Positions 142-36,065 of a stretch of DNA of 37,046 nucleotides are shown here, piece by piece. Made by a program: the position numbers and the translations under genes. A model generated the notes under the pieces. It had not been told where the DNA came from. It saw nothing but the letters and a program-made list of their open reading frames with translations, and ran no database searches. Positions within the stretch are counted from its first letter, which is position 1, and each line of letters begins with the position of its first letter. Origin of the DNA: a virus. Lineage: Duplodnaviria; Heunggongvirae; Uroviricota; Caudoviricetes. Location of the stretch: IMG/VR virus record IMGVR_UViG_2896601577_000003. One strand, given 5' to 3'.

Positions 142-492
142 AGCGCTTGCTCCTTTTTCGGGGAGGCGCTAACCTATCACTTGCTTAGGGTAGACGGTTA
201 GGGCCTCGGTTAAACAAAAATGTTTTCCGGGGCCTTTCCACATCTGGCCTTCAGGTATTCCCTCCGACCATCAGCCGAAAGGCACCCGCGCGTAATCTAT
301 CGCTTTTTTGTTACTCCGGCAATTCTGCTCGTTAATTCTGAGGTAAGGGCAAACTCATCTGATTGTTTCCTCTGTGTGAAGTTGGCAGTTCATGCCACGG
401 GTAGACTGGCCCCCTGAATCTCCAGACAACCAGTATCACTTAAATAAGTGATAGTCTTAATACTAGTTTTTAGACTAGTCATTGGAGTACAG

Positions 493-854
493 ATGATTGA
501 TGTCTTAGGGCCGGAGAAACGCAGACGGCGTACCACACAGGAAAAGATCGCAATTGTTCAGCAGAGCTTTGAACCGGGGATGACGGTCTCCCTCGTTGCC
601 CGGCAACATGGTGTAGCAGCCAGTTATTTCTCTGGCGTAAGCAATACCAGGAAGGAAGTCTTACTGCTGTGGCCGCCGGAGAACAGGTTGTTCCTGCCTC
701 TGAACTTGCTGCCGCCATGAAGCAGATTAAAGAACTCCAGCGCCTGCTCGGCAAGAAAACGATGGAAAATTAACTCCTCAAAGAAGCCGTTGAATATGGA
801 CGGGCAAAAAAGTGGATAGCGCACGCGCCCTTATTGCCCGGGGATGGGGAGTAA
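493..854 (+). pseudogene. insC: IS2 orfA (InsC), frame-broken
   Basis: ORF 448..720 contains [44 protein letters not shown] (InsC N-terminus) and then leaves the InsC frame near 620. An in-frame TAA follows at 771-773 (MEN*). Intact InsC should be about 121 aa ending near 854. Confidence 0.7.
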
Positions 855-1717
855 GCTTAGTCAGCCGTTGTCTCCGGGTGTCGCGTGCGCAGTTGCACGT
901 CATTCTCAGACGAACCGATGACTGGATGGATGGCCGCCGCAGTCGTCACACTGATGATACGGATGTGCTTCTCCGTATACACCATGTTATCGGAGAGCTG
1001 CCCACGTATGGTTATCGTCGGGTATGGGCGCTGCTTCGCAGACAGGCAGAACTTGATGGTATGCCTGCGATCAATGCCAAACGTGTTTACCGGATCATGC
1101 GCCAGAATGCGCTGTTGCTTGAGCGAAAACCTGCTGTACCGCCATCGAAACGGGCACATACAGGCAGAGTGGCCGTGAAAGAAAGCAATCAGCGATGGTG
1201 CTCTGACGGGTTCGAGTTCTGCTGTGATAACGGAGAGAGACTGCGTGTCACGTTCGCGCTGGACTGCTGTGATCGTGAGGCACTGCACTGGGCGGTGACT
1301 ACCGGCGGCTTCAACAGTGAAACAGTACAGGACGTCATGCTGGGAGCGGTGGAACGCCGCTTCGGCAACGATCTTCCGTCGTCTCCAGTGGAGTGGCTGA
1401 CGGATAATGGTTCATGCTACCGGGCTAATGAAACACGCCAGTTCGCCCGGATGTTGGGACTTGAACCGAAGAACACGGCGGTGCGGAGTCCGGAGAGTAA
1501 CGGAATAGCAGAGAGCTTCGTGAAAACGATAAAGCGTGACTACATCAGTATCATGCCCAAACCAGACGGGTTAACGGCAGCAAAGAACCTTGCAGAGGCG
1601 TTCGAGCATTATAACGAATGGCATCCGCATAGTGCGCTGGGTTATCGCTCGCCACGGGAATATCTGCGGCAGCGGGCTTGTAATGGGTTAAGTGATAACA
1701 GATGTCTGGAAATATAG
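812..1717 (+). CDS. insD: IS2 orfB (InsD) transposase, DDE catalytic domain
   Basis: 301-aa ORF; sequence matches IS2 InsD as I recall it (…[32 protein letters not shown]…[19 protein letters not shown]…). Confidence 0.9.
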
Positions 1718-1728
1718 GGGCAAATCCA

Positions 1729-2059: not shown

Positions 2060-4918
2060 TTATTCTGATGTCACTCTTTGCGAGTGAGCTATTTTTAAAT
2101 CAGCGTTTCCTTCAAATACTACATTCAACTCATAGTTAAGAGTTAGCTTGAATTTTTCTGAGTCACTTTTGATATTCTCTGAAGTGACATTTACTAACTT
2201 ATTATTATCATATTCTCTAATAATTAATTTAGTGAAGTAGTTATCCTTTACCACAAGAGAAAATGGTTGATTAACAAATGGTAAGAAGTAAACCTTACGG
2301 GTACCGGATTCAGTAGTTATGTTCATAGAGCCATCATCATTTTTTCTCATTAGTTCTCTGAGGTTGGGATTATCGAAAAGCATACGATTATATTGCTGAA
2401 AGATCTCTTTACTCATCACAAGAACCAGTTTGCCAGCCAAGTCAGCAGATGATTTTATGTGATCAATCAACATATTGAAATCTTCTATTACGGTATGTTG
2501 CGAACAGCCAGTGCTAAATAAATTTGAAAGTATTATTCTCTGGATGTCCTTGAGAATTAAGTCTGCTTGAATATCACCTTCATTGATATAAGGGATGGAT
2601 TCTATTCCTTCGGCATACGGTTCTTTATCTATCTTAATAGATATCTTATGTTTTGTGAAACAATCGCTAGCCTGCTTAAAATCAATAGATTTGAAAAGTG
2701 AAAGAGGGAGCGTTTTCTTGATGCGTTTACGAAGATGTTCTGATGTTTTACGTGCAGTGCTATCTAGTCGATGTACATCTATGGCAGCATCCTGAAGTCT
2801 CATATCAAGATCTTTCTTTAGCATGTTAATATGCTCTTGAAGCAACTTTCTTAAGTTTTCTTTTTTTGTTTGGAGATCGTCCAATGTTAAAGTCAGCTTG
2901 ATTTTAGTGTATTCGATGGAGTTACAAATTTTTGATAATACTCCAATGAGTCGTTGCTTCTCACGATATGTTATATAGTTGTTTTCTATTGCTTCTTTTA
3001 TTTCTTTTGATACGCTATCGTTCTTGTTAGAAAAAATTAATAATAGCTGAACCCATGATTGTTCCATATCAATAAATCCACAGTCAAAAACATTACTGTA
3101 AACTCTGCCCATCACCATGTCTGTTTTATCATAGTCACGTAAACGCCTTGCTAAACTATTCATCCACCCATTGTGCTCCATATTTTCAGACCATGTCCAC
3201 AGGCAGATTCTAATTAATATCTTGATTAGTTGGCTTGCATTATCAATTTCTTCAGTGGGAGTTTCATATCCACCGGTTTGGTCAATAAGTTTACCCTCTA
3301 AAATAAGTTTAATGTAATGTGTCATTAGTTTGTCAGAAGTATTGATTCTTGATGTCAGATAAAGACATGTGCATATACGCATGTCAGTCAACGCATTTAT
3401 GATGGCAATATTGAACCACTCTCTGTCTGAATTGAAGTTTAGTTTTTTGGATATGAAAAAAACCGGGTTAAAAAGCTGGCCTTTGTAACTGTATTTTTCT
3501 ACCGAATGGCTGTCAATATTCATTGAGTGCTGCCATCGGTTAATAAGATCGACGGCTGTATCAATAGTAGAAGGATCGCGAGTCTGTGTTGCATCAATAA
3601 TCATCGATGGAAGTTCTTGTAGTTGCGTTTTGCAAAATAATTCAAATAAATCTGAATTCTCTGTATTGCAGAAACGAAAGTTTATGCTTTCTTGATATTG
3701 CTCCCAAACAGTGGTATAGGTTCTTAATATACGATTATAACGTGAACGAAGCGAGGCATTTAAGAGTGATTGGTTGTTTCGGAACCATTCTGTCAATATT
3801 GACCATTGTGAACGAGTAATTCCCATATAGATACAAAGTTCATTGCTGATAAGATGTTTTCTATTATTGATAATACGCACTCCGCTCCAAAGACATAATT
3901 CAAAAAATCTTTCAGAAAGATTAATTTTATCCATGGAATTATTTGATATTTTATAAACTTCATCTGAAAACTCATATTGAAAACTCCGTTCAAATAATTC
4001 TGTAGTGATCAGTAAGAAGTTATTGTTGGTATTATCATCTTGAAAAAAATACAAATCGCAGAGATTATTAAAGTTATTAATTAATGCAGAGATAGCATTG
4101 TCAAAACTAATGAGATCAGAATCCCGCAGATACATATACGTATCTGCTGTTATAGCCTGCATTGTAAGACTTACGGAAAAATCTCCTCCTTTAATCGGAG
4201 CCCTATAAAAACATTGCTTAAGTATTTTTATTAATAAGCTGTCTGGTTTGATATTTTTAACGCTAAAAAGTATCTTACCCGTGGATTCTGTTTCTTTTGT
4301 ACGATTATCACCAATGACAAATGACGCAAAATGATTCTTCTTTTTTAGTTGGTAATTAATAAGATTAAGAGTAAGTTGAAAAGGACGGTGATATAAACTT
4401 AACTCATCTTCCTTAGAATAACTGCTAGCCACAGATATGTATTCTCCTTTGTAATCAGCTTGCTTGATTTCTAAATTTGAATAGTTATGTTTTTGATAGA
4501 TAGGGTATAACCTAAGCTTGGCTGAGATTTTGTTACAAATATGGGGCATTACTATTTCGAAGGCAATGTATCGCTTTATAATTATTTGCCGTTTTACATC
4601 ATCAAGAATTTCAAGACTCACGATAAAGAACCAAATAGAAAGAACTATGTTTATCAAAAGCCATAATATGCTGATTAGACAAGCTATACCATAAAGATAA
4701 CTTCCAAAGACAGTTTTAATTAGTACACTGAGAAGTATAAATCCTGATAAGAAAAGCCCGCTGAGTCCAGCAAGCATGAATCCTGAGTAACGCTGATAAG
4801 CAGTTTGGGCTATTTTTCTATCTGCCTTTTTTTGGAATAAGATACTTACTAAACCTATAACAAGGGGTATACAATACCAATAATTGTCAATTGGCCACTT
4901 AAAATGGTTGTTTGCCAT
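2060..4918 (-). CDS. Hypothetical 952-aa membrane-anchored protein, unknown family (cargo gene in AT-rich island)
   Basis: Uninterrupted 2859-nt ORF in visibly AT-rich DNA. The first ~110 aa contain 3-4 hydrophobic helices (CIPLVIGLVSILF; FMLAGLSGLFLSGFILLSVLI; YLYGIACLISILWLLINIVLSIWFFIVSL). The remaining ~840 aa are Lys/Asn/Ile-rich with a coiled-coil-like stretch (…LTLTLDDLQTKKENLRKLLQEHINMLKKDLDMRLQD…). I found no Walker A, PD-(D/E)xK, HEPN or kinase motif by eye. Confidence 0.6.
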   Translation of the reverse strand: MANNHFKWPIDNYWYCIPLVIGLVSILFQKKADRKIAQTAYQRYSGFMLAGLSGLFLSGFILLSVLIKTVFGSYLYGIACLISILWLLINIVLSIWFFIVSLEILDDVKRQIIIKRYIAFEIVMPHICNKISAKLRLYPIYQKHNYSNLEIKQADYKGEYISVASSYSKEDELSLYHRPFQLTLNLINYQLKKKNHFASFVIGDNRTKETESTGKILFSVKNIKPDSLLIKILKQCFYRAPIKGGDFSVSLTMQAITADTYMYLRDSDLISFDNAISALINNFNNLCDLYFFQDDNTNNNFLLITTELFERSFQYEFSDEVYKISNNSMDKINLSERFFELCLWSGVRIINNRKHLISNELCIYMGITRSQWSILTEWFRNNQSLLNASLRSRYNRILRTYTTVWEQYQESINFRFCNTENSDLFELFCKTQLQELPSMIIDATQTRDPSTIDTAVDLINRWQHSMNIDSHSVEKYSYKGQLFNPVFFISKKLNFNSDREWFNIAIINALTDMRICTCLYLTSRINTSDKLMTHYIKLILEGKLIDQTGGYETPTEEIDNASQLIKILIRICLWTWSENMEHNGWMNSLARRLRDYDKTDMVMGRVYSNVFDCGFIDMEQSWVQLLLIFSNKNDSVSKEIKEAIENNYITYREKQRLIGVLSKICNSIEYTKIKLTLTLDDLQTKKENLRKLLQEHINMLKKDLDMRLQDAAIDVHRLDSTARKTSEHLRKRIKKTLPLSLFKSIDFKQASDCFTKHKISIKIDKEPYAEGIESIPYINEGDIQADLILKDIQRIILSNLFSTGCSQHTVIEDFNMLIDHIKSSADLAGKLVLVMSKEIFQQYNRMLFDNPNLRELMRKNDDGSMNITTESGTRKVYFLPFVNQPFSLVVKDNYFTKLIIREYDNNKLVNVTSENIKSDSEKFKLTLNYELNVVFEGNADLKIAHSQRVTSE

Positions 4919-5178
4919 TCGGTTAATGAATGCCTAAACGGGAAATAATGTAAAAGATTATTTTTTATAAATAATTCGTTTAAATATCCAACATAAAGTA
5001 GTACAAATGAAAAAGCTGATATGCAAAGTACTGATTTAACCGGTGAGGATGTTAATCTTATGATGTTTTTTTCAATAAAATTCCATTTTAAATTCGAATA
5101 AAATGGATTTTTAACCATTTTATTACGAACATAGTTCTTTGCTAAAATCTCTGTTGCACTTAAAAATTGTCCAATCAT
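4855..5178 (-). CDS. Small hypothetical membrane ORF (107 aa), either a separate gene or the frame-shifted N-terminus of the 952-aa gene
   Basis: ORF overlaps the 5' end of the large ORF by 64 nt in another frame. Contains a hydrophobic helix (VLCISAFSFVLLYVGYL). Same AT-rich composition. Homopolymers GGGG/AAAA lie in the overlap. Confidence 0.35.
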   Translation of the reverse strand: MIGQFLSATEILAKNYVRNKMVKNPFYSNLKWNFIEKNIIRLTSSPVKSVLCISAFSFVLLYVGYLNELFIKNNLLHYFPFRHSLTEWQTTILSGQLTIIGIVYPLL

Positions 5179-7877: not shown

Positions 7878-8353
7878 TGGCTGTGCCAAAACATCTTCGC
7901 TTTTTTACGCTGTTTGTGGATGGTGAAAACGAAGTGGGTAATGTGACGTCCGTCACTCTGCCTAAGCTGACGCGCAAAACCGACAGCTACCGGGGTGGTG
8001 GCATGATGGGTGCGGTAAGTATTGATCTCGGTCTGGACGACTCCGCGCTTGATGCGAGCTTTGTCATGGGGGCGCAGTTCGTGAGCTGTTCCTTAAGTAT
8101 GGCGGCACGATTGACGGCACGCTGCTGCGTTTTGCGGGTGAATACTACACCGATGCAGAAAGCGACCTGTATGAAGTCGAAATGCGCGGACGTGTGACGG
8201 AAATTGATATGGGGGAAGCCAAACAGGGCGAAGCCACATCACACACTTACGCCATTAAAACACCTACTACAAGCTGAGTGTTAACGATCGCCCGTTGTGG
8301 GAGATTGACCTGCTGAACTTCATTTACCGGAAGGACGGGGTAATGACTCCAAC

Positions 8354-8731
8354 TTATTGATAGTGTTTTATGTTCAGATAATGCCCGATGACTTTGTCAT
8401 GCAGCTCCACCGATTTTGAGAACGACAGCGACTTCCGTCCCAGCCGTGCCAGGTGCTGCCTCAGATTCAGGTTATGCCGCTCAATTCGCTGCGTATATCG
8501 CTTGCTGATTACGTGCAGCTTTCCCTTCAGGCGGGATTCATACAGTGGCCAGCCATCCGTCATCCATATCACCACGTCAAAGGGTGACAGCAAGCTCATA
8601 AGACGCCCCTGCGTCGCCATAGTGCGTTCACCGAATACGTGCGCAACAACCGTCTTCCGGAGCCTGTCATACGCGTAAAACAGCCAGCGCTGGCGCGATT
8701 TAGCCCCGACGTATCCCCACTGTTCGTCCAT
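8354..8731 (-). CDS. insB: IS1 InsB (expressed as InsAB' by -1 frameshift)
   Basis: 125-aa [43 protein letters not shown]… matches IS1 InsB. Confidence 0.9.
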
Positions 8732-8775
8732 TTCCGCGCAGACGATGACGTCACTGCCCGGCTGTATGCGCGAGG

Positions 8776-9051
8776 TTACCGACTGCGGCCTGAGTTTTTT
8801 AAGTGACGTAAAATCGTGTTGAGGCTAACGCCCATAATGCGTGCAGTTGCCCGGCATCCAACGCCATTCATGGCCATATCAATAATTTTCTGGTGCGTAC
8901 CGGGTTGAGAAGCGGTGTAAGTGAACTGCAGTTGCCATGTTTTACGGCAGTGAGAGCAGAGATAGCGCTGATGTCCGGCAGTGCTTTTGCCGTTACGCAC
9001 CACCCCGTCAGTAGCTGAACAGGAGGGACAGCTGATAGAAACAGAAGCCAC
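8776..9051 (-). CDS. insA: IS1 InsA
   Basis: 91 aa [46 protein letters not shown]… matches IS1 InsA. Confidence 0.9.
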
Positions 9052-9219
9052 TGGAGCACCTCAAAAACACCATCATACACTAAATCAGTAAGTTGGCAGC
9101 ATCACCGAAGGACGGCAAGGACATTGTGCCCGATCGCATCCGTTCCGCGCTTGGGCTTGGCTGATAAGTAATATGCTGGCGGCGCAGTGCGTCGCCTCTG
9201 ACTGAAAAGGAGACAACAG

Positions 9220-12557: not shown

Positions 12558-13052
12558 ATGGCCATGATGATGATCTACGGCATGTTTGTTTTTGAGCTGC
12601 GCACGCTGCCGCATCAGCAGTTACAGCAAAACAAAAGCTGGCGGCATGTGAAAAATGAACGCGTTAACCGTTCAGCAAGCTGGCAGTATATCGGTGCAGG
12701 TGATGATCGCATCGTTCTTTCTGGTGTGCTTTATCCTGAAATTACAGGTGGCGAAGTGTCGCTGTCGCTGCTGACCACGCAGGCGTATACAGGACGACCC
12801 TGGCCTTTGATTGATGGCGTCGGGCAGATTTACGGCATGTATGTCCTGACTGAAACGAATACGACCCGCTCCGAGTTTGATCGCTACGGTAAGGCGAAAA
12901 AGATAGAATTTTCACTGACTCTTGAACGCTGTGATGAGGATTTGCGGGAGCGCCTGCAATCCTCATCGTTCAGTGATATGCTGTCCGGCTTCAAAGATAA
13001 GGTGACATCATCTCTTAACAGCGCGGCCAGTTCAGTTAAAGGGCTGTTCTGA
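12558..13052 (+). CDS. U: Tail protein (P2 gpU-like)
   Basis: 164-aa ORF immediately after the tape-measure gene; sequence is consistent with the P2 gpU family as recalled. Confidence 0.8.
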   Translation: MAMMMIYGMFVFELRTLPHQQLQQNKSWRHVKNERVNRSASWQYIGAGDDRIVLSGVLYPEITGGEVSLSLLTTQAYTGRPWPLIDGVGQIYGMYVLTETNTTRSEFDRYGKAKKIEFSLTLERCDEDLRERLQSSSFSDMLSGFKDKVTSSLNSAASSVKGLF

Positions 13053-13065
13053 TTTAACACAAAAA

Positions 13066-13097
13066 CCGCTAATGGTCAGATTAGCGGTTTTCATTTT
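13066..13097. terminator. Bidirectional hairpin between convergent U and invertase genes
   Basis: Perfect 12-bp inverted repeat AAAACCGCTAAT / ATTAGCGGTTTT with a 6-nt loop, flanked by T-rich tracts on both strands. It overlaps the invertase stop codon. Confidence 0.5.
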
Positions 13098-13697
13098 CCT
13101 GAGTCTGCCCGGTTGTTTCTTCAGTCTGTATATCGCCTACAGGGTGATAACGATAAATCGTCGATGTGCCAATGCCGTAAATTATTGCCAGTTGTTTTCT
13201 GTCGTGCCCGTTTTTGATTAGCCTTGCTATTTGCTCATGCTGTTCTTTTGTCAGCTTCGGTCGACGTCCGCCTGTGCGCCCCTTGCGCGCGCTGCCGCCA
13301 GCCCGGCCAGTGTACGTTCAACAATTAATTCACGTTCCATTTCAGCCAGGGCACCCATCACGTGGAAGAAAAAACGCCCCATTGGAGAAGATGTGTCTAT
13401 GCTGTCGGTCAGACTGCGAAAATTAATCCCTCGCTCCCGTAGTTCCCCGACGAGAGAAATCAGATGTTTCATGCTTCGCCCGAGGCGATCCAGTTTCCAG
13501 ACAACCAGCGTGTCACCTTTTTGAAGGCGCTTTAAAGCGCGTTTTAATCCCGGTCGGTCTGTCTTTGTCCCGCTTAATTTATCTTCAAATATTTGTTCAC
13601 ATCCTGCACAAACAAGAGCGTTTCGTTGCAGGTCTGTATTCTGGTCATTTGTTGATACCCTTACATAGCCAATCAGCACACTGAATCTCCCGTCCAA
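13081..13697 (-). CDS. Serine DNA invertase (Hin/Gin/Pin/Cin family), one frame break near the catalytic-domain/HTH junction
   Basis: N-terminus …LIGYVRVSTNDQNTDLQRNAL…DTLVVWKLDRLGRSMKHLISLVGELRERGINFRSLTDSIDTSSPMGRFFFHVMGALAEMERELIVERT… is typical of this family. The C-terminal HTH (GRTGGRRPKLTKEQHEQIARLIKNGHDRKQLAIIYGIGTSTIYRY) is read in a shifted frame from about 13255. Confidence 0.85.
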
Positions 13698-13733
13698 AAG
13701 CGCAAATCATGCCATGCAGGCCAGAAACGGCCA

Positions 13734-13759
13734 TTATTTAAAACCTCGGTTTACAGGAA
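13734..13759. repeat. gix/hix-like 26-bp crossover site (left boundary of the invertible tail-fibre cassette)
   Basis: TTATTTAAAACCTCGGTTTACAGGAA closely resembles the Mu gix site as I recall it, and is a 21/26 inverted match to the site at 17187-17212. Confidence 0.7.
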
Positions 13760-14620
13760 ACGGTAAACAGGGCTGGTAACGCCGTGCAAAAAAATGGCGA
13801 TACCTTGTCCGGTGGGCTTACTTTTGAAAATGACTCAATCCTTGCCTGGATTCGAAATACTGACTGGGCGAAGATTGGATTTAAAAATGATGCCGATGGT
13901 GACACTGATTCATACATGTGGTTTGAAACAGGCGACAACGGCAATGAATATTTCAAATGGAGAAGCCGCCAGAGCACCACAACAAAAGACCTGATGACGC
14001 TGAAATGGGATGCACTAAATATTCTTGTTAATGCTGTCATTAATGGCAGTCTTGGAGTTGGTTCGACGAATGCGTTAGGTGGTAGCTCTATTGTTCTTGG
14101 TGATAATGACACCGGATTTAAACAGAATGGAGACGGTATTCTGGATGTTTATGCTAATAGTCAGCGTGTATTCCGCTTTCAGAATGGAGTGGCTATTGCT
14201 TTTAAAAATATTCAGGCCGGGGATGGTAAAAAATTCACGCTATCCAGCTCCAACAACTTCACAAAGAATGCAACGTTTAATTTATGGGGTGCTTCAACCC
14301 GTCCAGTAGTTGCAGAGTTAGGCGATGAGGCAGGATGGCATTTCTATAGCCAGCGAAATACAGATAACTCGGTAATATTTTCTGTTAACGGTCAGATACA
14401 GCCCAGCAACTGGGGGAATTTTGATTCACGCTATGTAAAAGATGTTCGCCTGGGTACGCGTGTTGTTCAATTGATGGCGCGTGGTGGTCGTTATGAAAAA
14501 GCCGGACACGCAATTACCGGATTAAGAATCATTGGTGAAGTAGATGGCGATGATGAAGCCATCTTCAGACCAATACAAAAATACATCAATGGCACATGGT
14601 ATAACGTCGCACAGGTGTAA
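13760..14620 (+). CDS. Alternative tail-fibre C-terminal variable domain (Sv), currently in the silent orientation
   Basis: Open frame from the crossover site; ends …IQKYINGTWYNVAQV, parallel to the other variable domain (…IQYCINGTWYNAGSI). Followed by a tail-fibre assembly gene. Confidence 0.7.
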   Translation, partial: TVNRAGNAVQKNGDTLSGGLTFENDSILAWIRNTDWAKIGFKNDADGDTDSYMWFETGDNGNEYFKWRSRQSTTTKDLMTLKWDALNILVNAVINGSLGVGSTNALGGSSIVLGDNDTGFKQNGDGILDVYANSQRVFRFQNGVAIAFKNIQAGDGKKFTLSSSNNFTKNATFNLWGASTRPVVAELGDEAGWHFYSQRNTDNSVIFSVNGQIQPSNWGNFDSRYVKDVRLGTRVVQLMARGGRYEKAGHAITGLRIIGEVDGDDEAIFRPIQKYINGTWYNVAQV

Positions 14621-14623
14621 ATT

Positions 14624-15151
14624 ATGCAGCATTTAAAAAATATTAAGTCCGGAAATCCAAAAACAAAAGAACAATATCAGCTAACAAAGAATTTTGATGT
14701 TATCTGGTTATGGTCCGAAGACGGTAAAAACTGGTATGAGGAAGTAAATAACTTTCAGGACGACACCATAAAGATTGTATACGACGAAAATAATATTATT
14801 GTTGCCATAACCAAAGATGCCTCAACGCTTAATCCCGAAGGCTTTAGTGTCGTTGAGATTCCAGATATAACAGCCAATCGTCGCGCCGATGATTCAGGGA
14901 AGTGGATGTTTAAGGACGGAACTGTGGTTAAGCGGATTTATACAGCAGACGAACAGCAACAACAGGCCGAATCACAAAAGGTCGCGTTGCTTTCTGAAGC
15001 TGAAAGCGTTATTCAGCCACTGGAACGCGCTGTCAGGCTGAATATGGCGATGGATGAGGAACGCACACGACTGGAGTCATGGGAACGCTACAGCGTTCTG
15101 GTCAGCCGTGTGGATACAGCAAATCCCGAATGGCCACAAAAGCCTGAGTAA
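14624..15151 (+). CDS. Tail-fibre assembly protein (Tfa/U type) for the silent fibre variant
   Basis: 175 aa, N-terminus [40 protein letters not shown]…; paralogous to ORF 15180..15713 on the opposite strand. Confidence 0.8.
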
Positions 15152-15179
15152 AAATTAAGGCCCAATATCGGGCCTTCTC

Positions 15180-15713
15180 TCATTCTGGTTGTTCGGGAAA
15201 CGTTACTGGCAGGCTGGAGGTGTCTGTAGATTCGACTTTCTGCGCATAGAGCATCCACTCGGTTAATTTTTGTTTATTCTCGTCGGAAATGATGCCCAGC
15301 CGTAGCTGTGAGTCCCATAGCTGGGTTTTATCCCTGACAAGTTGCAACAGGCTTTGCTTTTCATTTTCCGCTTGTTGCCTCTGCTCTTCCTCGGTATAAG
15401 TTCGCTTTATCACTACGCCATCTTTGAACAACCATTTCCCCGAAATATCAGCCCGGCGATTTGCTGTAATATCAGGTAATTCAACGACGCTTGCGCCTTC
15501 CGGATTAATTGCTGAAACATCCTTTTCAATACAAATAATAACGCCGTTATGGTCATAGACCATTTTCAAAGTGTCTGGCTGGAAATTCTTTTGTTCCTCA
15601 TACCAGTTTTTTCCATCATCTGAATAAAGCCATTTGATGTTAAATTGCTTTGTTAGCTGGTATTGCTCTTTTGTTTTAGGGTTGCCAGCAGTAATGTTTT
15701 TTAAGTGCATCAT
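15180..15713 (-). CDS. Tail-fibre assembly protein (Tfa/U' type) for the currently joined fibre variant
   Basis: 177 aa [40 protein letters not shown]…; convergent with its paralogue, as in Mu/P1-type invertible fibre cassettes. Confidence 0.8.
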   Translation of the reverse strand: MMHLKNITAGNPKTKEQYQLTKQFNIKWLYSDDGKNWYEEQKNFQPDTLKMVYDHNGVIICIEKDVSAINPEGASVVELPDITANRRADISGKWLFKDGVVIKRTYTEEEQRQQAENEKQSLLQLVRDKTQLWDSQLRLGIISDENKQKLTEWMLYAQKVESTDTSSLPVTFPEQPE

Positions 15714-15715
15714 CG

Positions 15716-17186
15716 TTAAATACTCCCCGCGTTATACCACGTCCCATTAATGCAATACTGAATTGGCCTTGCCTGTGTTGTATCAATTAATTCATCACGG
15801 TTTCCGTTAACTGAACCCGTAACGACATAACCTGACCTGTCAGACCAGCCGGGACCATTCCATGTCTGAACAGATGACAGACCGCCAAGGCGAATACCTG
15901 TAATAAACCTTGAGTTACATTCTGCCCGCGTATATGCACCAACATCTCCCGCTGAAGGTTTTCGTGTCGTGGTATAGAAATCTGACCAACCTAATTCAAC
16001 CCGGTAATGACTCCAACTTATTGATAGTGTTTTATGTTCAGATAATGCCCGATGACTTTGTCATGCAGCTCCACCGATTTTGAGAACGACAGCGACTTCC
16101 GTCCCAGCCGTGCCAGGTGCTGCCTCAGATTCAGGTTATGCCGCTCAATTCGCTGCGTATATCGCTTGCTGATTACGTGCAGCTTTCCCTTCAGGCGGGA
16201 TTCATACAGTGGCCAGCCATCCGTCATCCATATCACCACGTCAAAGGGTGACAGCAAGCTCATAAGACGCCCCAGCGTCGCCATAGTGCGTTCACCGAAT
16301 ACGTGCGCAACAACCGTCTTCCGGAGCCTGTCATACGCGTAAAACAGCCAGCGCTGGCGCGATTTAGCCCCGACGTATCCCCACTGTTCGTCCATTTCCG
16401 CGCAGACGATGACGTCACTGCCCGGCTGTATGCGCGAGGTTACCGACTGCGGCCTGAGTTTTTTAAGTGACGTAAAATCGTGTTGAGGCTAACGCCCATA
16501 ATGCGTGCAGTTGCCCGGCATCCAACGCCATTCATGGCCATATCAATAATTTTCTGGTGCGTACCGGGTTGAGAAGCGGTGTAAGTGAACTGCAGTTGCC
16601 ATGTTTTACGGCAGTGAGAGCAGAGATAGCGCTGATGTCCGGCAGTGCTTTTGCCGTTACGCACCACCCGTCAGTAGCTGAACAGGAGGGACAGCTGATA
16701 GAAACAGAAGCCACTGGAGCACCTCAAAAACACCATCATACACTAAATCAGTAAGTTGGCAGCATCACCATTCAACCCCATAACCATCACGAGCCGACCT
16801 GTAGGAAATGCCACCATTTTTATAATTCACACGGAATTGTACGGCAGGACAGCTACCAGCATTTATATTAAAGTGAAGAATTAATGTAGATGCACCACCA
16901 ATCAGGGCGTTATATGCACTACTATCCCAATTCCATCCAATGGATGTATCACCATTAACAGTATTACCTGTTTGTCGGAGTGCAAATGCATTGACATTTT
17001 TGGCACTAATTGAAATATCGCTAGAACCATCAAAACCAACTCCAGCAATTTTTCGTGCTGTTTTCAGCTTTGTTGCAGTAGCGGCATTGCCGGACAGTTC
17101 CCAGAAAGGCCACCGCTGAATGTTTGTCGATTGGTCCAGGTATTCGCTGTACTGAGTAACGGTATTTTCTCCCCGCTTGTGCCGAG
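15716..17186 (-). pseudogene. Tail-fibre variable C-terminal segment (Sv') joined in frame to H, interrupted by IS1 copy 2
   Basis: Reading on from H through the crossover site gives …AKNVNAFALRQTGNTVNGDTSIGWNWDSSAYNALIGG…DGYGVE | IS1 | …GWSDFYTTTRKPSAGDVGAYTRAE…IQYCINGTWYNAGSI, stop at 15718-15716. Confidence 0.7.
16003..16769 (-). mobile_element. IS1 copy 2 inserted inside the invertible tail-fibre cassette
   Basis: Same termini as copy 1. Perfect 9-bp target-site duplication ATTCAACCC at 15994-16002 and 16770-16778. InsB intact (16018..16395); insA frame-broken at a C-run (ORFs 16440..16667 and 16532..16714). Confidence 0.95.
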
Positions 17187-18476
17187 TTCTCGTAAACCGA
17201 GGTATTCGATAACGGCAGCAACGGTCGATTTCGCAAGAATATCCCGCCCGACTTTTGTCAGGGTTGCCAGGCTGGCGACATCATTCCCCGTAAAATACGG
17301 AAACCTGTCTGCCGCAGTAGCAAGCCCGGCCAGCGCCGTCAGGGTGGCATCTTTCGGTTGCTTACCCGCAAGCGCGTTAGTCATGGTGGTCGCAAAATTC
17401 GGGTCGTTTCCCAGCGCCGCCGCTAACTCGTTCAGCGTATTCAGTGCGTCAGGTGACGAATCTACAAGGGCGGCAATCGCAGCCATAACGAAAGCCGTGC
17501 TTGCGATTTGGGTATTATTCGTTCCCTGTCGCGCAGTTGGCGTTGTTGGCGTTCCGGTCAGCGCAGGACTGTTTAAGGGCGCTTTCTTGTTCGTTTCATC
17601 CATTACCGCCTTAACCGCTTTCGATGTCGCGGCCAGTGTTTCAGACGTGCTGTTGGTGGCACTACTGAGCTGGACTATCCCTTTTTGTGCCGTCGTGGCG
17701 TCCTGAGCGGTATATTTTGCGTTAGCAAGGTCATACGCGGCCTTTACTGCTTTCGGCGTTGCAGCCTGCGTTTCAGACGTGCTGTTGGTGGCGCTACTGA
17801 GCTGGACAAGGCCTTTTCGCGTCGTGCTGGCATCCTGCGCAGTATATTTACCGTTAGCAAGATCATACGCGGCCTTTACTGCTTTCGGCGTTGCAGCCTG
17901 CGTTTCAGACACGCTGTTAGTGGCGCTACTGAGTTGAACAAAGCCTTTTGCGGTCAGCGAGGCGTCCGGGTGACGTCGTGACTGTTCATGCTCTTTCAGT
18001 TTGTCATCCACGTAATCCACTGTGGCCATCACCATGGTGTTGTCCACGGTAAGCGCCACGGTGGCAGTGCTGGATACGGTCAGAATGGTGCGAAATGTTT
18101 GTGCACGACCGGACCCTTCGGCAACGGCTGGCTTGTAACTTTCGGCAGTATTTCCCACCGCGATTAAATCGCCGTGCTCATCAAATACACCAATTTCCCG
18201 GATCCAGAATCCGCCCGTTTCAGGAGGAATAACCAGCTCCGCAATAATGCGGTTCTGATGTGTTGCGTCCAGGATGACGCGATTAACAGTATGTCGCCAC
18301 ACCTCATGCACCAGACGGGTCTGCTTACTGTCTGGTGTGGGCAACGTGCCGCCACCGTCGCCCACGGCCATATGAGTCAGGCGGACAGGCTTACCATCTG
18401 GCGCGGCTACCTGAGCTAATTTTTTTGCACCCGTATCGGTGATAATGGTTTTAAATTTTCGTGTTGTGGTACTCAT
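17064..18476 (-). CDS. H: Tail fibre protein, constant N-terminal part (P2 gpH-like)
   Basis: 470-aa ORF with three tandem copies of a fibre repeat (…VQLSSATNSTSETQAATPKAVKAAYDLAN…). The ORF ends at 17064 only because of a 1-nt break near 17100; the reading frame otherwise continues through the crossover site into Sv'. Confidence 0.85.
   Translation of the reverse strand: MSTTTRKFKTIITDTGAKKLAQVAAPDGKPVRLTHMAVGDGGGTLPTPDSKQTRLVHEVWRHTVNRVILDATHQNRIIAELVIPPETGGFWIREIGVFDEHGDLIAVGNTAESYKPAVAEGSGRAQTFRTILTVSSTATVALTVDNTMVMATVDYVDDKLKEHEQSRRHPDASLTAKGFVQLSSATNSVSETQAATPKAVKAAYDLANGKYTAQDASTTRKGLVQLSSATNSTSETQAATPKAVKAAYDLANAKYTAQDATTAQKGIVQLSSATNSTSETLAATSKAVKAVMDETNKKAPLNSPALTGTPTTPTARQGTNNTQIASTAFVMAAIAALVDSSPDALNTLNELAAALGNDPNFATTMTNALAGKQPKDATLTALAGLATAADRFPYFTGNDVASLATLTKVGRDILAKSTVAAVIEYLGLRELGTSGEKIPLLSTANTWTNRQTFSGGLSGNCPAMPLLQQS
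17187..17212. repeat. gix/hix-like 26-bp crossover site (right boundary), inside the H coding sequence
   Basis: TTCTCGTAAACCGAGGTATTCGATAA; its reverse complement TTATCGAATACCTCGGTTTACGAGAA matches the site at 13734-13759 at 21/26 positions. Confidence 0.7.
17600..17990. repeat. Three tandem ~132-bp repeats inside H (tail-fibre repeat motif)
   Basis: Near-identical DNA units, for example starting 17731 and 17863, encoding KG(L/I)VQLSSATNS(T/V)SETQAATPKAVKAAYDLAN(G/A)KYTAQDA…; boundaries approximate. Confidence 0.6.
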
Positions 18477-28623: not shown

Positions 28624-29680
28624 TGAGCAGAAAAAATAAAAAAGTGCGCATGAGTTCACGCATTGATCTCGCTGATGCGCTCAGGAAAGAATCATCGCTC
28701 AGTGCATTCACATTTGATGGTCCTTATCGCCTGACCGGGCATGACCTGCTGGACAATATGTACTGTGCTGATAACGGGCGGTGGTATGAACCCCGGTGGA
28801 CTGGTACGGTCTGGCAAGAGCTGCCCGGCAAACGTCTTGGCATCAGTCTGCGCTTTACTTTAAGCGCAATGTATTGCTCGGTTGCTACATCCCGCACCCG
28901 CTGCTTTCCCGGTAGGATTTCTCGGCGCTGGCGCTGGCGCTGGCGCTGGACTGGTTTGTGTTCGGTAACGCATTCCTTGAGCTTCGAAGCAATATGCTCG
29001 GCGAACCGCTTAAATTACGGCACGCCCTGGCGAAATACATGCGACGCGGAAGCGATCTTGAATCATGGTGGTATGTGCAGGATGGCAAGGATGCGTTTCA
29101 GTTTCGCCCAGGCAAAGTGTGTCACCTGATGAATCCTGACATTAACCAGGAAATCTACGGCATGCCGGAATATCTCGGCGCATTACTCTCGGCCAGCCTG
29201 TCTCATTCGGCGGACATGTTCAGAAAACTGTATTACGACAACGGATCCCACGCCGGGTGCATCATCTACATCGGTGCCGCGCAGGTAAACCGCGAAAGCA
29301 TGGACTCCCTGAAAGAAACGCTACAGGGTGCGCGTGGTGGTGGTGCGTTTAAAAACGTGCTCATTCATGCGCCCAACGGGGGCAAAGAGGGGGTGCAAAT
29401 TTTGCCGTTCCAGCAGATCACCGCAAAGGATGAGTTCATGAATGTTAAGGCGGCATCCCGTGATGATGTGCTGGCTGCGCACCGCGTTCCGCCGCAACTG
29501 ATGGGGGCGATGCCGGGTGAAAAAAGTGCGTTTGGTGATGTGGAGAAGGCCGCGCGGGTTTACGCAATTAACGAGCTGATGCCCGTCATGGAGGCCATGA
29601 AGCACATCAATGACTGGCTTGGCGAAGAGGTGATCCGCTTTAACCCTTACGCACTGTTAGACATCCAGCCCACATCCTGA
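28623..29680 (+). CDS. Q: Portal protein (P2 gpQ-like), split into two overlapping ORFs
   Basis: ORFs 28623..29129 and 28958..29680; start overlaps the P stop (TGATG). Frame break between about 28800 and 28915. Confidence 0.85.
28924..28947 (+). repeat. (GGCGCT)x4 hexanucleotide tandem repeat inside the portal gene
   Basis: Four perfect tandem hexamers, encoding (AL)4 in the downstream portal frame and RWRWRWRW in the upstream ORF frame. Confidence 0.85.
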
Positions 29681-31745: not shown

Positions 31746-32902
<1,157 letters not shown>

Positions 32903-33167
32903 AACCGAAGAACACGGCGGTGCGGAGTCCGGAGAGTAACGGAATAGCAGAGAGCTTCGTGAAAACGATAAAGCGTGACTACATCAGTATCATGCCCAAA
33001 CCAGACGGGTTAACGGCAGCAAAGAACCTTGCAGAGGCGTTCGAGCATTATAACGAATGGCATCCGCATAGTGCGCTGGGTTATCGCTCGCCACGGGAAT
33101 ATCTGCGGCAGCGGGCTTGTAATGGGTTAAGTGATAACAGATGTCTGGAAATATAGGGGCAAATCCA
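32903..33167 (+). mobile_element. IS2 3'-terminal fragment (about 265 bp) abutting IS911
   Basis: Identical in content to 1464-1728 of the complete IS2 (InsD C-terminus …[28 protein letters not shown]… and right end GGGGCAAATCCA at 33167). Confidence 0.85.
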
Positions 33168-34757: not shown

Positions 34758-36065
34758 TGAACCGCCCGGGAATCCTGGAGACTAAACTCCCTGAGAAAGA
34801 GGTAAACAGGATGACTAAAAATACTCGTTTTTCCCCGAAGTCCGTCAGAGGGCGATTCGTATGGTTCTGGAAAGTCAGGGCGAATATGACTCACAGTGGG
34901 CGGCAATTTGTTCCATTGCCCCAAAGATTGGCTGTACACCGGAGACTCTGCGTGTCTGGGTACGCCAGCATGAGCGGGATACCGGAGGCGGTGATGGCGG
35001 GCTCACCACCGCTGAACGTCAGCGTCTGAAAGAGCTGGAACGTGAAAATCGTGAACTGCGCCGCAGTAACGATATCCTTCGCCAGGCTTCCGCTTATTTT
35101 GCGAAGGCGGAGTTCGACCGCCTCTGGAAAAAGTGATGCCACTGCTGGATAAGCTGCGTAAGCTGTACGGGGTCGGACCGGTATGCAGTGAACTACATAT
35201 TGCCCCGTCAACGTATTACCACTGTCAGCAACAGCGACATCATCCTGATAAACGCAGTGCCCGTGCGCAGCGCGATGACTGGCTGAAGAAAGAGATACTG
35301 CGCGTATACGATGGGAATCATCAGGTATACGGTGTGCGTAAAGTCTGGCGTCAGTTGTTACGGGAAGGTATCAGAGTGGCCAGATGCACTGTGGCACGTC
35401 TCATGGCGGTTATGGGACTTGCCGGTGTTCTCCGGGGTAAAAAGGTCCGTACGACCATCAGCCGGAAAGCCGTTGCCGCAGGCGACCGCGTAAACCGTCA
35501 GTTCGTGGCAGAACGACCTGACCAGCTGTGGGTGGCTGATTTTACTTACGTCAGCACATGGCAGGGCTTCGTCTATGTGGCGTTCATCATTGATGTGTTT
35601 GCCGGATACATCGTGGGGTGGCGGGTCTCATCGTCCATGGAAACGACATTCGTGCTGGATGCTCTGGAGCAGGCGTTATGGGCCCGTCGACCGTCCGGCA
35701 CGGTCCATCACAGTGATAAAGGTTCTCAGTATGTATCGCTGGCCTACACACAGCGGCTTAAGGAAGCCGGATTACTGGCATCAACAGGAAGTACAGGCGA
35801 CTCGTATGACAACGCGATGGCGGAGAGCATCAATGGTCTTTACAAAGCGGAGGTAATACACCGTAAGAGCTGGAAAAACCGTGCAGAAGTGGAACTGGCC
35901 ACACTCACGTGGGTGGACTGGTATAATAATCGACGATTGCTGGAAAGGCTGGGCCATACTCCTCCGGCAGAAGCAGAAAAAGCTTATTATGCTTCCATCG
36001 GAAACGATGATCTGGCAGCCTGAGTTCACAGATAAAACACTCTCCAGGAAACCCGGGGCGGTTCA
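34758..36065 (+). mobile_element. IS3-family element (IS629-like, about 1.31 kb) inserted between C and int
   Basis: Imperfect terminal inverted repeats TGAACCGCCCGGGAATCCTGGAGA… (34758…) and …TCTCCAGGAAACCCGGGGCGGTTCA (…36065). orfA from about 34811 (MTKNTRFSP…, one frame break near 34840) and orfB 35133..36023 with a DDE domain; A AAA AAG slip motif near 35124-35130. Flanked by the direct repeat CGAA (34754-34757 and 36066-36069). Confidence 0.85.

Follow-up and report, generated by a model that had tools for sequence, protein, structure and literature searches.

Invertible tail-fibre segments driven by recombinases of the Gin family have been textbook material since the 1980s. The enzymes concerned, those of the Din family, are small serine recombinases in which an N-terminal catalytic domain (with the nucleophilic serine at about residue 9-10) is followed by a C-terminal helix-turn-helix (HTH) domain. 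The named systems include the G segment and gin of phage Mu, the C segment and cin of P1 and P7, the P segment and pin of e14, and the B segment and pinB of Shigella boydii (GenBank D00660), the last of which Tominaga et al. reportedly described in 1991 as a Gin-like invertase beside a Mu-like Sv-U/U'-Sv' segment that lies downstream of a constant fibre part unlike Mu S. Din-family enzymes are said, again by Tominaga in 1991, to substitute for one another. Here, we analysed a 37,046-nt stretch of viral DNA (IMG/VR record IMGVR_UViG_2896601577_000003; the whole stretch is hereafter the window, to which all coordinates refer) and conclude that it very probably carries a switch of the Din family (Gin/Cin/Pin/PinB type) in which site-specific inversion would set the host range of the tail fibre, located in a P2-like prophage of the P88/Xuanwuvirus type. 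Both the switch and the phage type are already known: hundreds of E. coli prophages, and classified phages too, have this exact module already annotated, and the locus represents an ordinary Gin/Cin/PinB-type system that adds scant new biology. What is specific to this strain is solely an IS1 insertion in the expressed fibre tip and a doubtful frameshift in the invertase gene.

The module and its relation to named systems

Reading of positions 12800-17600 together with the list of open reading frames (ORFs) gave the order gpU-type tail gene, invertase, crossover site, Sv, U, hairpin, U', Sv' (interrupted by IS1), crossover site and Sc (Table 1). Beyond Sc, at higher coordinates, come I, J, W and V, all on the minus strand. 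The arrangement is that of the Mu G segment, namely Sc, site, Sv-U, U'-Sv', site and an invertase gene reading outward, and the resemblance extends to the sequence: over its first 200 nt, the invertase gene differs from Mu gin at 3 positions (197/200 identical), and the two crossover sites match gix at 24/26 (left) and 22/26 (right) positions with the same GA core. By contrast, the host phage of the window is P2-like, Sc is a P2-type H, Sv is just 46.5% identical to Mu S (and 55% to P1 S), and the DNA-binding domain of the invertase diverges from that of Gin. The last 165 amino acids of the repaired Sv' show 87% identity to Mu S', and it is this Mu-S'-like tip that has been struck by IS1.

The closest match at the crossover sites is with the S. 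boydii B-pinB system, against which the left site matches bixR at 25/26 positions and the right site matches bixL at 24/26. To our knowledge, an IS1 insertion is no part of the published B-pinB system. Going by coordinates given in PMC3241671, the length of the B segment is apparently ∼3.1 kb, compared with 2.68 kb for the segment here without IS1. The systems of P1/P7 and e14 share with the window their membership of the Din family, the position of the enhancer at the same place in the invertase gene, and a right site that matches cixR at 23/26 positions; however, the core dinucleotide of the cix and pix sites is AA rather than GA, and sequence identity is lower. In P1, 0.6-kb inverted repeats lie at the ends of the C segment. 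The P1 record notes that the P1 C segment is 89-93% identical to SHFPINB. Finally, the Xuanwuvirus prophages 503458, P884B11 and GDSC2BY4G have the same gene order at 95-99.6% nucleotide identity, with the invertase and fibres annotated, but these copies are free of the IS1 insertions and of the single-base deletions described below. Experiments by Goldberg et al. (2014, PMC4272514) have demonstrated inversion at the tail-fibre loci of P2-like prophages in E. coli.

The invertase gene is collinear with the 600-nt coding sequence of a "recombinase family protein" in E. coli GDSC2BY4G, with a single gap, at a C-run. When one base was added to that run (13279-13282), the product was a 199-amino acid protein that differs from the GDSC2BY4G protein at 1 residue and contains the Pfam domains Resolvase (1.4e-50) and HTH_7 (4e-13). 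The structures matched are those of Gin (Protein Data Bank entries 4m6f, E 3e-100, and 3uj3, E 1.4e-99); the first ∼130 residues are nearly identical to Mu Gin, whereas the DNA-binding domain is divergent. The catalytic domain, with its VRVSTNDQ motif, is intact in the sequence as given. The protein belongs to a cluster of 1018 members, and one exact sequence occurs on at least 1000 contigs. Near the 5' end of the gene and inside it, a putative equivalent of the Fis-dependent recombinational enhancer is identical to Mu gin at 72/72 positions and matches the enhancer annotated in P1 cin (record AF234172) at 55/72; the crossover site, the intergenic region and the start of the gene align throughout with the Mu gix-gin region. 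Because both sites, their matching cores and the enhancer stretch were found, all cis components of a Gin-type system are present. Between the convergent gpU and invertase genes, a 12-pair hairpin followed by a T-run (13062-13091) overlaps the last invertase codons and is probably a terminator shared in both directions.

On the established knowledge of Gin and Hin, the serine invertase, encoded just outside the segment, would bind the two 26-bp sites; with Fis on the enhancer in the invertase's own gene, both sites would be cut at the central dinucleotide, the strands rotated, and the segment inverted. This segment measures ∼2.7 kb (2.68 kb without IS1) and 3.45 kb here with IS1. Late transcription would come in from H, so that Sc would be joined in frame either to Sv'-U', as at present, or to Sv-U.

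Crossover sites and both orientations among relatives

The two 26-bp sites are inverted with respect to each other: one matches the reverse complement of the other at 21/26 positions, and the central dinucleotide is identical (TC/GA). A 14-nt core, AAACCTCGGTTTAC, occurs twice in the 37-kb window when up to one mismatch is allowed, both times at the sites, with 0 occurrences expected from 100 shuffles. We compared the sites with the table of Din-family sites in PMC3241671 (Table 3 therein). The reverse complement of the left site, TTCCTGTAAACCGAGGTTTTAAATAA, differs from bixR at one position (25/26) and from gix at two (24/26), and the left site matches bixL at 23/26 and cixR at 19/26; the right site, besides its 24/26 match to bixL and 23/26 match to cixR, scores 22/26 with both bixR and gix. 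In the flipped state of the module, one site is identical to S. boydii bixL (26/26) and the other is 3 positions off bixR. A scan with the palindromic "dix" consensus (TTC...AAAC...GTTT...GAA) was dropped because it did not discriminate: the true left site scored like ∼20 background 26-mers, and shuffled sequences gave ∼12 hits. The site call is therefore based on the agreement of the sites with gix and bix, together with the endpoints of a natural inversion.

That inversion was seen in RM11911, in which the flanks are collinear with the window and the entire segment between the sites is inverted, with both sites as its endpoints. The sites in RM11911 are reciprocal hybrids, TTATTTAAAACCTC joined to GGTTTACGAGAA and TTCCTGTAAACCGA joined to GGTATTCGATAA, as predicted for exchange at the core. 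We also flipped positions 13747-17199 in silico and searched complete E. coli genomes for the resulting synthetic Sc-Sv junction (600 nt); three of them contain the entire junction at 100.0% identity. At a coverage of at least 80%, the flipped junction occurs in 356 complete E. coli genomes and the junction in its present orientation in 158. Both orientations thus exist for the module family, as seen in other genomes, and from the sequence comparisons we take the 26-bp repeats to be the true crossover sites.

We also considered whether the sites could be chance or relic inverted repeats, with the two orientations produced by homologous recombination or by choices made in assembly. Beyond the general fact that inverted repeats can recombine, we found nothing that speaks for such an origin. 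Homologous recombination was rejected because homology between the segment ends, in the comparison with RM11911, is confined to ∼25 bp and because the breakpoints lie exactly at the core and leave exact reciprocal hybrids. In addition, agreement with gix and bix sites that were defined by experiment reaches 22-25 of 26 positions, 0 chance occurrences of the site core are expected in the window, and a cognate invertase and an enhancer adjoin the sites. This explanation is effectively refuted already.

The right site lies within the reading frame of H, and both orientations are in frame through it, giving Sc plus Sv' followed by U' or Sc plus Sv followed by U. For the present orientation, removal of IS1 and one copy of its target duplication and restoration of one base at 17100-17102 gave an H of 661 amino acids that is 6 residues off the H of GDSC2BY4G. 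For the flipped orientation, the site reads ..IEYLGLQETVNRAGN.. in silico, and H is a stop-free 716 amino acids, 3 residues off the annotated 716-amino acid fibre of RM11911. Sc is collinear with the tail-fibre coding sequence of GDSC2BY4G. An internal direct repeat of ∼214 nt (86% identity, offset 132 nt) lies in Sc at 17608-17952 and encodes a recurring SSATNS.SETQAATPKAVKAAYDLA fibre motif, corresponding to three copies of Pfam Phage_fiber_2.

Taken together, these results bear out what a preliminary description, made from the letters of the window alone, had proposed, with some qualifications. It had named a Gin/Pin-type invertase, which agrees with the Resolvase and HTH_7 domains seen after repair and with the Gin structures at E ∼1e-100; its pair of inverted, gix-like 26-bp sites with 21/26 agreement survived exact alignment to gix and bix; and the invertible cassette that it placed between them has its flipped junction in nature. 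Likewise, the two fibre C-termini with their assembly proteins in opposite orientations (Sv-U on the plus strand, U'-Sv' on the minus strand), the location of the right site inside H with an in-frame swap of the tip, and the disruption of the joined Sv' by the second IS1 copy, with duplication ATTCAACCC and an intact silent Sv, were all found as it had stated. Its phrase "complete host-range switching module" is right as far as the cis parts go, but the surrounding prophage is defective.

Single-base frame breaks: assembly error or real change

As written, the invertase ORF (13251-13679) encodes 142 amino acids and stops before HTH_7, which is in frame solely after the repair. The lesion is a one-base deletion in the C-run at 13279-13282, which has four Cs where relatives have five, and it leaves the C-terminal HTH domain out of frame. 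The preliminary description had placed a frame break near 13255. Such a break is real in the given sequence, but that position is merely near the resulting stop codon (13251-13253), whereas the lesion itself lies in the C-run and is probably an artefact. It had overlooked a second one-base deletion, in the Sv' C-run at 17100-17102, which ends H as written at 470 amino acids, before IS1 is reached.

These two breaks are part of a wider pattern. Compared with three close relatives over ∼30 kb, the window has ∼20 single-base insertions or deletions (indels), and all of them are deletions in the window, with 0 insertions. About half lie in runs of at least four G/C, and the rate is ∼1 per 1.5 kb. 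Runs of five G/C are shortened in the window at 7 of 28 places and longer G/C runs at 1 of 3, compared with 1 of 137 runs of at least five A/T. Examples are found across the window (4864, 8068, 10921, 13279, 17100, 18541, 19166, 20368, 28060, 29998, 33703 and 34721), and the deletions split the tape-measure, I, J, V and terminase genes as well as others. The second copy of IS1 shows the same pattern relative to the first, with one base missing from a C-run. Further, the shortened invertase run was found in 0 of the 396 complete RefSeq E. coli genomes that hold this stretch. Because the indels are exclusively deletions and are biased toward G/C runs, we read the invertase frameshift as a probable artefact; the one-base breaks in both the invertase and Sv' are probably errors of the assembly consensus. 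The pattern looks like residual long-read consensus error, and natural decay looks implausible at ∼0.3% substitution divergence. It would appear, then, that the indels reflect systematic consensus error, and not pseudogenization, in CP026867.1 (GCA_002949895.1), the 4.6-Mb GenBank chromosome to which the truncated H product traces the window. What is new in this analysis is that the invertase frame break is the loss of one base from a G/C run of five, and thus probably artefactual.

Several points weigh against our reading of the locus as a Gin-type switch with an artefactual frame break, and they are gathered here. Independent assemblies include 20 contigs, often short ones, that encode an identical, truncated 142-amino acid invertase, and these contigs represent at least three allelic backgrounds. 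Therefore, either the -1 change arises in nature or the same error recurs, and a genuine -1 at the invertase run could be real here. The inversion was seen in related genomes, by which flipping in this strain is at most suggested. Similarly, enhancer function and dependence on Fis are proposed from homology, as is the receptor specificity of the two tips.

If the deletion is real, the switch would be fossilized: the enzyme would have no HTH DNA-binding domain, and the segment would be locked in its IS1-disrupted orientation unless another Din-family invertase acted in trans. The end of the written ORF upstream of HTH_7, the same truncation on the 20 other contigs, and the decaying state of the prophage, which has five IS elements and a 5.7-kb deletion, are all consistent with this possibility. 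We nevertheless consider it unlikely, although not negligibly so, as the deletion-only, G/C-run-biased indels at ∼1 per 1.5 kb suit consensus error at such low divergence, the short run is absent from the 396 complete genomes described above, and the H truncation at 17100 was found on no contig besides the window's own record.

A second possibility is that the G5 tract, which falls in the hinge joining the catalytic part to the DNA-binding part, is a contingency site whose slippage reversibly toggles the invertase, making a switch upon the switch. The same -1 is present in at least three alleles, and the downstream frame is open in 9 of the 10 loci examined, the tenth (L010) having a further frame change near its 3' end. 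However, five bases make a short run for phase variation, the ∼20 contigs stand against at least 1000 with an intact protein, none of the 396 complete genomes has the short run, and several of the carriers are large contigs of GenBank-only (GCA) assemblies, which may share an error mode. We accordingly regard it as very improbable that frameshifts recur at the invertase G5 tract as a hotspot, perhaps reversibly, and so form a second-order switch; the contingency-site explanation as a whole is just as far-fetched. Were it true, a frameshift hotspot in the G5 tract would lock the tail-fibre switch in one orientation, and the window would represent the OFF state, with a tip killed by IS1 and an intact tip in reserve. 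On the preferred reading of consensus error, the many one-base frameshifts of this record, that of the invertase included, should not be called pseudogenes without a check of the reads.

The IS1 insertion and the defective prophage

The IS1 copy in Sv' differs in kind from the single-base deletions. IS1 is an element of ∼768 bp with terminal inverted repeats and the genes insA and insB, and it makes target duplications of 8-9 bp. The copy in Sv' (copy 2) is 99.7% identical to the copy in the tail-tube gene (copy 1), has intact terminal sequences, and is flanked by the 9-bp target duplication ATTCAACCC at 15994-16002 and 16770-16778; the gene called within it (in locus L006) matches Pfam DDE_Tnp_IS1. 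An empty target is found in 39 complete E. coli genomes, and the insertion in Sv' is absent from all complete E. coli RefSeq genomes that hold the module; a scan of species-representative genomes for the IS1/Sv' junction gave 0 hits. Together with the IS load and the accession series, this absence hints that the source may be Shigella. The possibility that IS1 is itself an artefact of assembly was ruled out: the two copies of the target duplication agree exactly, and relatives show a precise empty site. The insertion is genuine. With the frameshift at 17100 disregarded, the H product would end 4 residues inside IS1, at 570 amino acids. The present state of the locus is thus one in which the cis parts (sites, cores and enhancer stretch) and the silent Sv-U are intact, and the joined Sv' is broken at H codon 566. 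Copies 1 and 2 of IS1 are in direct orientation at a distance of 6.9 kb. They enclose the tube gene's end, E, the gene for the tape measure, U, the invertase gene and the greater part of the invertible segment, so that the switch would be lost if the two copies recombined.

Table 1. Positions of the switch components, IS elements and adjoining tail gene in the window
Feature	Position	Strand	Remarks
P2 gpU-type tail gene	ends 13052	+	from the ORF listing
Din-family (Gin/Cin/PinB-like) serine DNA invertase	13081-13679	-	GTG start; 599 nt as given
Fis-dependent recombinational enhancer (sis) equivalent, putative	13590-13661	-	invertase gene positions 19-90
Left crossover site, TTATTTAAAACCTCGGTTTACAGGAA	13734-13759	+	core TC at 13746-13747; invertase start codon 54 bp downstream
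Sv, silent alternative fibre C-terminal part	13760-14620	+	frame open from crossover site to stop; Pfam Gp34_trimer 9.7e-12
U, assembly chaperone for Sv	14624-15151	+	Pfam Caudo_TAP 4e-35; 96.6% identical to Mu U
GC-rich terminator-like hairpin between convergent U and U'	15157-15176	.	from a consensus scan alone
U', assembly chaperone for Sv'	15180-15713	-	Pfam Caudo_TAP 1.1e-36; 97.2% identical to Mu U'
Sv', joined fibre tip, interrupted by IS1	15716-17186	-	from the ORF listing and relatives
Sv', distal (3') part	15716-16002	-	severed from H by IS1; holds first duplication copy; collinear with GDSC2BY4G H up to the insertion
IS1 copy 2	16003-16769	-	767 bp; one-base deletion in insA C-run; after H codon 566
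Sv', proximal part, fused to Sc	16770-17186	-	holds second duplication copy; one-base deletion in C-run 17100-17102
Right crossover site, TTCTCGTAAACCGAGGTATTCGATAA	17187-17212	+	core GA at 17199-17200; within H reading frame, encodes ..IEYLGLRE..
Sc, constant N-terminal part of H (P2-type collar domain and fibre repeats)	17213-18476	-	Pfam Phage_tail_fib 1.3e-53, Phage_fiber_2 8.2e-62
IS1 copy 1	8339-9106		768 bp; in tail-tube gene near its 3' end; duplication GAAGGACGG
IS2-like element (IS3 family)	402-1728		inside late activator gene ogr; 5-bp overlap at target
IS3-family element	31746-33167		adjoins 5.7-kb deletion; part of parM and replication endonuclease gene gone
IS3-family element	34761-36061		start of int

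The window is almost wholly one prophage, from hok and ogr to int. Without IS1, the region of the switch is 98.5-99.6% identical in 39 complete E. coli genomes. Of the Xuanwuvirus phages, 503458 covers 72% of the query at 95.3% identity, 520873 covers 70% at 96.0%, and P884B11 covers 66% at 98.7%; the record of phage 503458 annotates a "DNA invertase", a "tail fiber protein" and a "tail fiber chaperone". In E. coli GDSC2BY4G (L001), the order is sheath, tube, E, tape measure, U, recombinase, fibre, chaperone, chaperone, fibre, I, J, W and V. As the same order is found in relatives, the location of T and U on one strand and of H, I, J, W and V on the other is the normal layout and not a rearrangement. 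On synteny (gene order as in L001 and L002) and identity, the prophage would be assigned to the Xuanwuvirus/P88-like P2 type. It carries five IS elements and is defective: ogr, the tail-tube gene and the beginning of int have each taken up an IS element, and the replication gene has been lost.

Other features were seen elsewhere in the window. The IS elements at 402-1728 and 31746-33167 share an identical 265-bp end. Between ogr and gene D, a 1039-amino acid ORF on the minus strand (2060-5178; 1228-4347 in L007) is labelled "MFS transporter" in RefSeq and is split by a deletion in a G-run at 4864; a check for defence homologues gave no Pfam or PADLOC hits for it, and it may be an uncharacterized cargo (moron) gene of this phage type. 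In the terminase/portal region, at 28924, there is a 12-bp in-frame insertion relative to E. coli JNEC-KY180, consisting of two extra units of a GGCGCT tandem hexamer; it is the sole insertion seen in the window.

Overall, whether it flips or not, the switch can no longer alter the host range of a phage, and the prophage around it is defective. The practical value of these results lies in annotation: the region should carry the label of a PinB/Gin-type switch, and the prophage that holds it that of a defective, P88-like one. More broadly, the orientation polymorphism of such switches can be checked in public genomes by a search with a synthetic flipped junction.

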